A program made the translations under genes and the position numbers. A model generated the notes under the pieces. That model worked only from the letters and a program-made list of their open reading frames with translations. It was not told the DNA's origin and did not search any database. Of a stretch of 15,411 nucleotides of DNA, positions 7,982 to 8,317 are shown in pieces; the first letter of the stretch is position 1; each line of letters starts with the position of its first letter. The DNA is from a virus (lineage: Duplodnaviria > Heunggongvirae > Uroviricota > Caudoviricetes), in IMG/VR virus record IMGVR_UViG_2802429249_000004, positions 1-15,411 of that record. One strand, written 5' to 3'.

Positions 7982-8317
7982 GGTAGACGGTTGGTAGACA
8001 GATTCACTTAACCCTCTACCAACCATCTACCAATTAATATTTTGAATTATAAAGATATTTTCAATGTGGTAGAGAGGTAGACAGTTATTTCTATATTCCT
8101 AAACCACGGGGGGTATATAAAAAACAGATAGTTAAGGGGGCATTTTTTAAATTTCTCTTTTAACTGTCTACACTGTCTACCATTTAGTAAAAATCATTAA
8201 TTATCAATGTATTAATGCGGTAGACCGTTGGTAGACAGTTTGCAGATTGTTTTTTTGTTATGTGTTAATAACATTAAATAAATCAATCAATTATATCGGT
8301 AGACAGTTGGTAGACAG
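7982..8317. repeat. Iteron cluster (putative origin of replication / primase binding sites): six copies of a ~20-bp doublet GGTAGAC(N)GTTGGTAGACAG, four direct and two inverted, separated by AT-rich spacers
   Basis: Copies at 7982-8001, 8012-8031 (inverted), 8068-8084 (variant GGTAGAGAGGTAGACAG), 8164-8181 (inverted), 8219-8238 and 8298-8317. AT-rich spacers such as CAATTAATATTTTGAATTATAAAGATATTTTCAAT. Sits between the primase gene and the ProQ-like gene. Confidence 0.7.

Follow-up and report, generated by a model that had tools for sequence, protein, structure and literature searches.

A putative iteron-type replication origin directly downstream of pri-rep in a Gram-negative phage-inducible chromosomal island at tRNA-Thr in Escherichia

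The 15,411-nt stretch of DNA analysed here (record IMGVR_UViG_2802429249_000004; hereafter the window, to whose positions all coordinates refer) was assigned to a Gram-negative phage-inducible chromosomal island (PICI) integrated at tRNA-Thr in Escherichia, because its int, alpA, pri-rep and perC gene set and its one-directional layout match the published description of such elements (PMC6092414). Directly downstream of pri-rep, which encodes an initiator-helicase, lies a cluster of short repeats (7982-8317) that is very probably the vegetative replication origin of the island. We base this on the homology of the Pri-Rep C-terminus to the P4 domain in PDB 1KA8, on the position of the cluster, which is that of P4 crr, on the presence of GGTAGAYAG in the tested origin of EcCICFT073, and on the co-variation of the Pri-Rep C-terminus with the iteron across alleles. 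The initial annotation had taken the repeats for an iteron origin to which the neighbouring helicase binds, as P4 alpha binds ori and crr, and these comparisons strongly support it. The positions of all features are collected in Table 1.

All twelve GGTAGACAG-type 9-mers reported earlier were located, arranged as six doublets (D1 to D6) of which four are direct and two inverted, as had been claimed (D1, D3, D5 and D6 on the plus strand; D2 and D4 on the minus strand). Six units are perfect, four carry one mismatch and two carry two mismatches. The doublet consensus given at the same time (GGTAGACNGTTGGTAGACAG, with 11-bp spacing) describes D1, D5 and D6, is degenerate in D2, and does not hold for D3 and D4, which are spaced more tightly. 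The spacers between doublets are AT-rich, again as described (11-29% GC). Matches to the unit with at most one mismatch number 14 in the window against 1.64 expected, a count reached in 0 of 200 shuffles, and ten of them fall in the 336-bp stretch 7982-8317. Matches elsewhere are isolated, carry one mismatch and are about as frequent as expected by chance (~2 per sequence), and neither the window nor the complete island of strain APEC E123 (L001) contains a second iteron cluster. The cluster begins 28 nt past the pri-rep stop codon; it ends 20 nt ahead of the RefSeq ATG of the ProQ-like gene (8338), the distance stated in the initial annotation, and the first in-frame proQ ATG (8326) lies 8 nt past the end of D6.

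The product of pri-rep is organised as an N-terminal domain (aa 1-145), a D5_N domain, a superfamily 3 (SF3) P-loop helicase and a C-terminal origin-binding domain. Similarity to P4 alpha begins at residue 146, and over aa 146-592 the two proteins are 49.6% identical; identity to the Pri-Rep of EcCICFT073 is 43%, and the ATPase core is similar to that of a staphylococcal self-loading helicase (7OLA, E=8.5e-10). P4 alpha consists of a primase, an SF3 helicase and a C-terminal winged helix, the N-terminal primase being of the DnaG type (PMC2777425). Pri-Rep of the window differs from it here, with what appears to be an unrelated 145-aa domain in place of the P4 primase domain, and a Pfam search of the 601-aa protein gave no primase domain. 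The earlier label "primase" is for this reason unsupported: an SF3 helicase and an origin-binding domain are what can be demonstrated. Residues 1-132 model as a four-stranded alpha/beta domain with a predicted local distance difference test score (pLDDT) of 81, and other E. coli islands have the same N-terminal module joined to DUF927 helicases and, as a more distant relative, to RepA-type helicases. The full-length AlphaFold model has a mean pLDDT of 41, and Foldseek gave nothing below E=0.03. The variable C-terminal segment that follows the presumed recognition helix is presumed to be a beta-hairpin wing, by homology to 1KA8 and other winged helices and from the low-confidence model.

Origins of Gram-negative PICIs have been described as lying directly 3' of pri-rep, with AT-rich DNA between two iteron sets (Fillol-Salom et al. 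2018, ISME J, PMC6092414). The region in the window has this form: it lies 3' of pri-rep and its iterons flank AT-rich DNA, in an element that has the host gene set, the plus-strand orientation and the attachment (att) site. In the published work the pri-ori fragment of EcCICFT073 kept a temperature-sensitive plasmid at 44 C, an ability that was impaired when either pri or ori was deleted (PMC6092414). We mapped the published EcCICFT073 primers and found that the ori-less construct ends 4 nt past the pri-rep stop codon; the tested "ori" is therefore the intergenic region at about 7001-7307 of L002. This fragment contains at least 11 GGTAGAYAG units in both orientations, degenerate units included, and the authors' deletion primer contains GGTAGACAGGGTAGACAG. 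The two islands share a homologous Pri-Rep, an origin 3' of its gene with doublets in both orientations around AT-rich DNA, the GGTAGAYAG core, DUF4222 and Icd-like genes upstream, and perC downstream. They differ in the length and composition of the origin (371 bp and 32% GC in the window versus 288 bp and 42% GC in EcCICFT073), in the arrangement of its repeats, in the Pri-Rep wing, which lacks the 5-residue insertion in EcCICFT073, and in the integration site (tRNA-Thr in the window, ycfD-phoQ in EcCICFT073); tRNA-Thr is not among the E. coli integration sites in Table S1 of that study (PMC6092414). As an origin, the cluster would be what one expects of an element of this known class, and its iteron is the same as that of the published EcCICFT073 origin.

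In the GenBank record of P4, crr carries "ori type 1 repeats" (TGTTCACC), and its start is about 46 bp beyond the 3' end of alpha. On the opposite strand the P4 iteron reads GGTGAACAG, from which GGTAGACAG differs only at positions 4-5 of nine (GGT-AG-ACAG in the window, GGT-GA-ACAG in the P4 type-1 iteron); the repeats of the window are not the P4 type-1 iteron, CTGTCTACC standing in place of CTGTTCACC, a two-base difference. In form, with 9-bp spacing, D4 (GGTAGACAGTGTAGACAG) is identical to the crr doublet GGTGAACAGTGTGAACAG. Both elements have a homologous SF3 helicase with an origin-binding domain, and in both an iteron cluster follows the initiator gene after a few tens of bp; in P4 that cluster is crr. 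Taken together, the comparison indicates that the PICI module of Pri-Rep and origin is homologous to P4 alpha and crr, and not merely analogous. P4 differs in having two clusters, ori and crr, ~4.7 kb apart, where the island in the window has one, and in having a terminator between alpha and crr, where none was found after pri-rep in the window.

The likeness to staphylococcal pathogenicity islands (SaPIs) is one of functional design. Their Rep or PriRep origins have 6-12 iterons directly downstream of rep with a central AT-rich region, at least two iterons stand on each side in opposite orientation, and the initiator is an SF3-type helicase with a C-terminal winged helix (PMC9371898). Similarity to the island in the window is detectable in the helicase core, and this distant homology is confined to the ATPase core; the SaPI iterons are 5-6 nt long and unrelated in sequence, and the hosts are Gram-positive. 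The classical iteron plasmid origin (pSC101, R6K), with direct 17-22-bp iterons, a RepA- or pi-type initiator and DnaA boxes, was considered and rejected, because the units in the window are 9-11 bp long and stand in both orientations, the initiator is an SF3 helicase, and the region has one DnaA-box-like site. That site has one mismatch, and no DnaA box in the region is convincing.

For the comparison across alleles, species-representative genomes yielded a single Pri-Rep relative (a locus in E. ruysiae) when scanned, and relatives were therefore drawn from IMG/VR, E. coli genomes, phage records and the protein database; the loci compared come from IMG/VR, phage, E. coli and Salmonella records. 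In every one of them a cluster of repeats directly follows the gene, and the type of repeat varies by allele. In the count of wings and repeats, whose 84 loci represent only about five independent lineages or allele classes, GTAGAY repeats accompany the GPDKG-insertion wing in 22/22 loci and GTGAAC repeats, the iteron of P4, accompany the KTKxG wing in 62/62 loci, with essentially no cross-occurrence; loci of the window class have GTGAAC 0-1 times in the 450 nt past pri-rep. Wing and repeat are paired as KRAKCTKGPDKGRVITNVLL with GGTAGACAGTT in the window class, KRKQCTRGPDKGRTISNVLL with RGTAGACACTT in the Salmonella class, KRKTKHGLRSNVTL with GGTGAACAGTT in the sister class, KRKTKHGIRSNVTL with GGTGAACACTT in a third class, and KRHTKQGIQTNLTL with GGTGAACAG in P4.

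The sister PICI alleles (IMG/VR L022-L083, phage record vB_KppS-Ant and E. coli GN02050), which have GGTGAACAG(T) or GGTGAACAC(TT) origins, encode Pri-Rep proteins 74-90% identical to that of the window and have the origin at the same position, with similar size and AT content. They differ in that the last ~40 Pri-Rep residues and the whole origin are replaced, the iteron being that of P4 and not the AG variant. Nucleotide identity between the window and sister alleles is >0.9 in the middle of the gene and ~0.4 from gene nt 1711 through the whole origin, and BLAST alignments end at pri-rep nt 1690 in many E. coli genomes; the 3' end of pri-rep and the origin therefore travel together. It is the presumed wing, the final ~40 residues of Pri-Rep, in which the change of specificity appears to lie. 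We further propose that these residues and the adjacent origin form one exchangeable specificity cassette, in which the GA to AG change of the iteron relative to P4 is matched by replacement of the wing, and which would make co-resident P4-like satellites and PICIs orthogonal replicons; on this proposal our own judgement is evenly divided.

Several observations weigh against the origin assignment or the specificity scheme attached to it. Pri-Rep binding, DNA melting and the site of initiation are all inferred for this element. The published ori deletion in EcCICFT073 lowered colony numbers without abolishing them (PMC6092414). Among 12 distinct close variants of the region, 18.7% of iteron columns and 23.5% of spacer columns are variable (p=0.34), a comparison between sequences too alike to inform. 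The wing was assigned by homology and from a low-confidence model. The rule that links wing and iteron is not universal, EcCICFT073 having a GTAGAY iteron despite a short wing without the insertion, and the count of loci, given the few lineages behind it, overstates its statistical weight.

In P4 the cluster directly 3' of alpha is crr and not ori, and D4 shares the form of the crr doublet. The repeats in the window could accordingly be a cis-acting enhancer or copy-number control site that is bound by the initiator, with synthesis starting at a separate origin elsewhere in the island. We regard this as highly improbable: a second iteron cluster is present neither in the window nor in the full APEC E123 island, and in EcCICFT073 pri-rep together with one intergenic region is enough for plasmid maintenance.

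The initial annotation had also suggested that the last copies act as operators for the ProQ/PerC operon, and in its stronger form this idea makes the repeats binding sites for a transcription factor or for an autoregulating Pri-Rep that controls proQ-perC, with no origin at all. The short distance from D6 to the proQ start speaks for it, as do the resemblance of TAGACA in each iteron to a -35 hexamer and the weak promoter-like sites that overlap D3 on the plus strand and D4 on the minus strand. A promoter scan, however, gave 3 weak promoter-like sites in the region against 1.8 expected in shuffles and no good sigma-70 promoter between D5 and proQ, and twelve sites over 336 bp with AT-rich spacers have the look of an origin. 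The repeat type, moreover, tracks the replicase allele and not the downstream genes. In CFT073 the GGTAGAYAG origin, a homologous fragment with a replication phenotype, precedes unrelated genes (a hypothetical gene and an ssb gene). In E. coli ETEC1747 (L091, NZ_CP122722.1, 2123-5370), where a sibling island has a RepA-family helicase in place of Pri-Rep, the helicase gene is directly followed by eight AAAGTGAGG repeats and a truncated 5' fragment of proQ, and then by the last ~50 nt of pri-rep, an orphan GGTAGACAG origin and intact proQ-perC, so that the 5' end of proQ stands behind wholly different repeats. This chimeric island looks like the product of recombination through the 5' end of proQ that left two different origins in tandem. 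From ETEC1747 and CFT073 together it follows that the repeats belong to the replicase and not to proQ, and the operator role found no support; that the cluster serves transcription and not replication is, in our estimate, very unlikely.

The block of proQ homology starts only ~16 nt ahead of its ATG, and no terminator was found after pri-rep by a terminator scan. Because there is neither a terminator at that point nor a convincing promoter between D5 and proQ, the simplest reading is that transcription from upstream runs through the origin into proQ-perC, which is consistent with the unidirectional transcription reported for Gram-negative PICIs (PMC6092414).

It is also very unlikely that the region is an origin in form only, its repeats out of use in a defective relic. 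Decay is common among chromosomal islands, only six of the twelve units match the consensus perfectly, the iterons are not measurably more conserved than the spacers among close relatives, and ETEC1747 has an orphan copy of the origin without its pri-rep. Against this, the reading frames of pri-rep, int and alpA are intact, and the functional CFT073 origin has degenerate units as well. The same origin and Pri-Rep protein occur together in ~100 E. coli genomes and also in E. ruysiae, and a near-identical Pri-Rep is on record from Salmonella and Citrobacter.

A packaging site (pac- or cosB-like) for a small terminase, or a set of integrase arm-type sites, is scarcely credible: such sites are also short repeated motifs and the open reading frame (ORF) at 11615-12160, which contains HTH_17, could be TerS-like, but the repeats are 8 kb away from the attachment end, vary together with the C-terminus of the helicase and are a near-copy of the iteron bound by P4 alpha, and the cos sites of EcCICFT073 have been described as separate sequences.

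If the cluster is the origin, replication would begin with induction of the island and production of the 601-aa Pri-Rep, whose C-terminal winged helix would bind the twelve GGTAGACAG-type iterons, as homology and co-variation suggest. By analogy with SaPI Rep and P4 alpha, the opposed doublets D1/D2 and D3/D4 may then load SF3 helicase hexamers around AT-rich DNA, and one of the AT-rich tracts would melt. Host enzymes would carry on replication; priming would probably be the task of the host primase or of another function, because the P4-type primase domain seems to be missing from Pri-Rep.

The anatomy of the region offers candidate sites for these steps. Taken to the first in-frame ATG of proQ (7955-8325), it is 371 bp long with 32% GC, and a nearest-neighbour profile places its least stable duplex at 8032-8062. 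D1 pairs with D2 as a tight inverted repeat of 17 nt with 94% complementarity, and a second inverted repeat, I1 (8033-8076 and 8173-8216), makes the segment 8033-8216 dyad-symmetric around the 79-bp spacer between D3 and D4. Two perfect matches to the IHF consensus, one upstream of D5 and one upstream of D6, are the only ones in the window (P=0.0026 for two or more in local dinucleotide shuffles), and sister origins show no more than imperfect versions at that place. The pattern suggests IHF-assisted bending, a post-hoc lead, as it was spotted after looking at the region. An alignment of the four origin types was too noisy column by column, and only the module of an inverted doublet, ~40 bp of AT-rich DNA and a direct iteron could be aligned.

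Other signals in the region were recorded separately. Nothing reached the Rfam gathering score, and an RNA element was rejected, the sub-threshold Rfam matches being hairpin artefacts of the inverted repeats. Each iteron holds TAGACA, which is near a -35 hexamer, and weak promoter-like sites at 8070-8097 (plus strand, in D3) and 8170-8142 (minus strand, in D4) face each other across the central spacer. The 12-mer TTAAAAGAGAAA abuts D4 at 8152-8163 (minus strand). A single copy is found in each of two further places, a sister origin (L028 4525) and P4 crr (L084 4518); the other origins examined lack the 12-mer, its placement relative to the doublet varies, and it was not used as evidence.

Table 1. 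Features of the island and of the proposed origin (window coordinates)
Feature	Position	Strand	Details
int, tyrosine integrase	1-1215	+	PICI gene set
alpA (AlpA)	2208-2453	+	PICI gene set
Genes for AntA-family, Icd-like and DUF4222 proteins		+	Icd-like and DUF4222 genes upstream of pri-rep
pri-rep, 601-aa initiator-helicase	6149-7954	+	Pfam D5_N, DUF5906, Pox_D5; PHROG 864
Winged-helix origin-binding domain of Pri-Rep, aa 491-592	7619-7924	+	phmmer against PDB 1KA8 (P4), E=6.2e-19
Presumed beta-hairpin wing, aa 564-583 KRAKCTKGPDKGRVITNVLL, with 5-residue insertion	7838-7897	+	Co-variation with iteron type
Non-coding region from pri-rep to proQ, proposed origin	7955-8337		Taken to RefSeq start 8338
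D1	7982-7990 GGTAGACGG, 7993-8001 GGTAGACAG	+	11-bp spacing
D2	8012-8020 GGTAGAGGG, 8023-8031 GGTAGATGG	-	11-bp spacing
35-bp tract, 11% GC, candidate unwinding element	8033-8067		Nearest-neighbour profile
D3	8068-8076 GGTAGAGAG, 8076-8084 GGTAGACAG	+	8-bp spacing, one-base overlap
Central spacer between convergent D3 and D4, 79 bp, 29% GC	8085-8163		Two G-runs flank TATATAAAAAACAGATAGTTAA core
D4	8164-8172 TGTAGACAG, 8173-8181 GGTAGACAG	-	9-bp spacing, abutting
Perfect match TATCAATGTATTA to IHF consensus WATCAANNNNTTR	8202-8214	+	4 bp upstream of D5
D5	8219-8227 GGTAGACCG, 8230-8238 GGTAGACAG	+	11-bp spacing
Spacer, 59 bp, 19% GC, second least stable tract	8239-8297		Stability minimum 8265-8297
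Perfect match AATCAATCAATTA to IHF consensus WATCAANNNNTTR	8281-8293	+	4 bp upstream of D6
D6	8298-8306 GGTAGACAG, 8309-8317 GGTAGACAG	+	11-bp spacing
proQ, ProQ/FinO family	8338-8868	+	Pfam ProQ; RefSeq start ATG 8338; outside origin
perC, PerC-family regulator	8865-9152	+	Pfam PerC, 3.8e-32; typical accessory gene of E. coli PICIs

In strain APEC E123 the island adjoins tRNA-Thr, downstream of proBA. The DNA of the origin region is present in 149/5426 complete E. coli genomes, chromosomal every time, and carriage of the origin among these genomes is put at about 100-150/5426. The ORFs scanned in the window gave no Pfam match to capsid or terminase proteins and no match to the P4 psu, delta, sid, epsilon or cos families; alpA and the PICI layout are present instead. 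The gene perC is carried by some E. coli PICIs (PMC6092414).

Further genes were noted on either side of the origin. The right end of the window (13425-15411) holds defence-like genes, namely one for a GmrSD_N/DUF262 protein that matches PADLOC NsnA (7e-65) and, beside it, one for a HEPN (RiboL-PSP) protein that is cut by the window end; the near-identical APEC E123 island has GapS1 at the equivalent spot, which suggests a variable slot for anti-phage cargo. On the other side, an open frame of 512 aa at 3325-4863 (plus strand) has family matches only in its last ~50 residues (Icd-like/repressor PHROGs). The frame is open in APEC E123 too, overlaps annotated minus-strand genes of the YlcI/YnfO type and has a low-complexity translation; it is probably a shadow frame that ends in a real 74-aa Icd-like gene.

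Many enterobacterial PICIs (L022-L083, L085 and L088) have GGTGAACAG origins, that is, the exact P4 type-1 iteron, and wings near that of P4 alpha. By this likeness P4 and the GGTGAACAG-type PICIs might cross-activate or compete for each other's origins, which the AG variant of the window would escape.

The result opens no new class of biology. It places the probable origin of a satellite island that is widespread in Escherichia and has perC, proQ and anti-phage genes, and ties this origin to the one tested Gram-negative PICI origin; the initiators of the window and of EcCICFT073 are predicted possibly to cross-recognise each other's origins. Its practical value is modest and consists in exact coordinates for a minimal replicon and in a natural specificity switch, GTAGAC versus GTGAAC. 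Should the proposal of an exchangeable cassette be true, sister PICIs that keep the exact iteron of P4 could be cross-replicated by P4 alpha, and the family would be a natural series on how the wing of a winged helix reads two base pairs and on how satellites avoid or exploit replication cross-talk.

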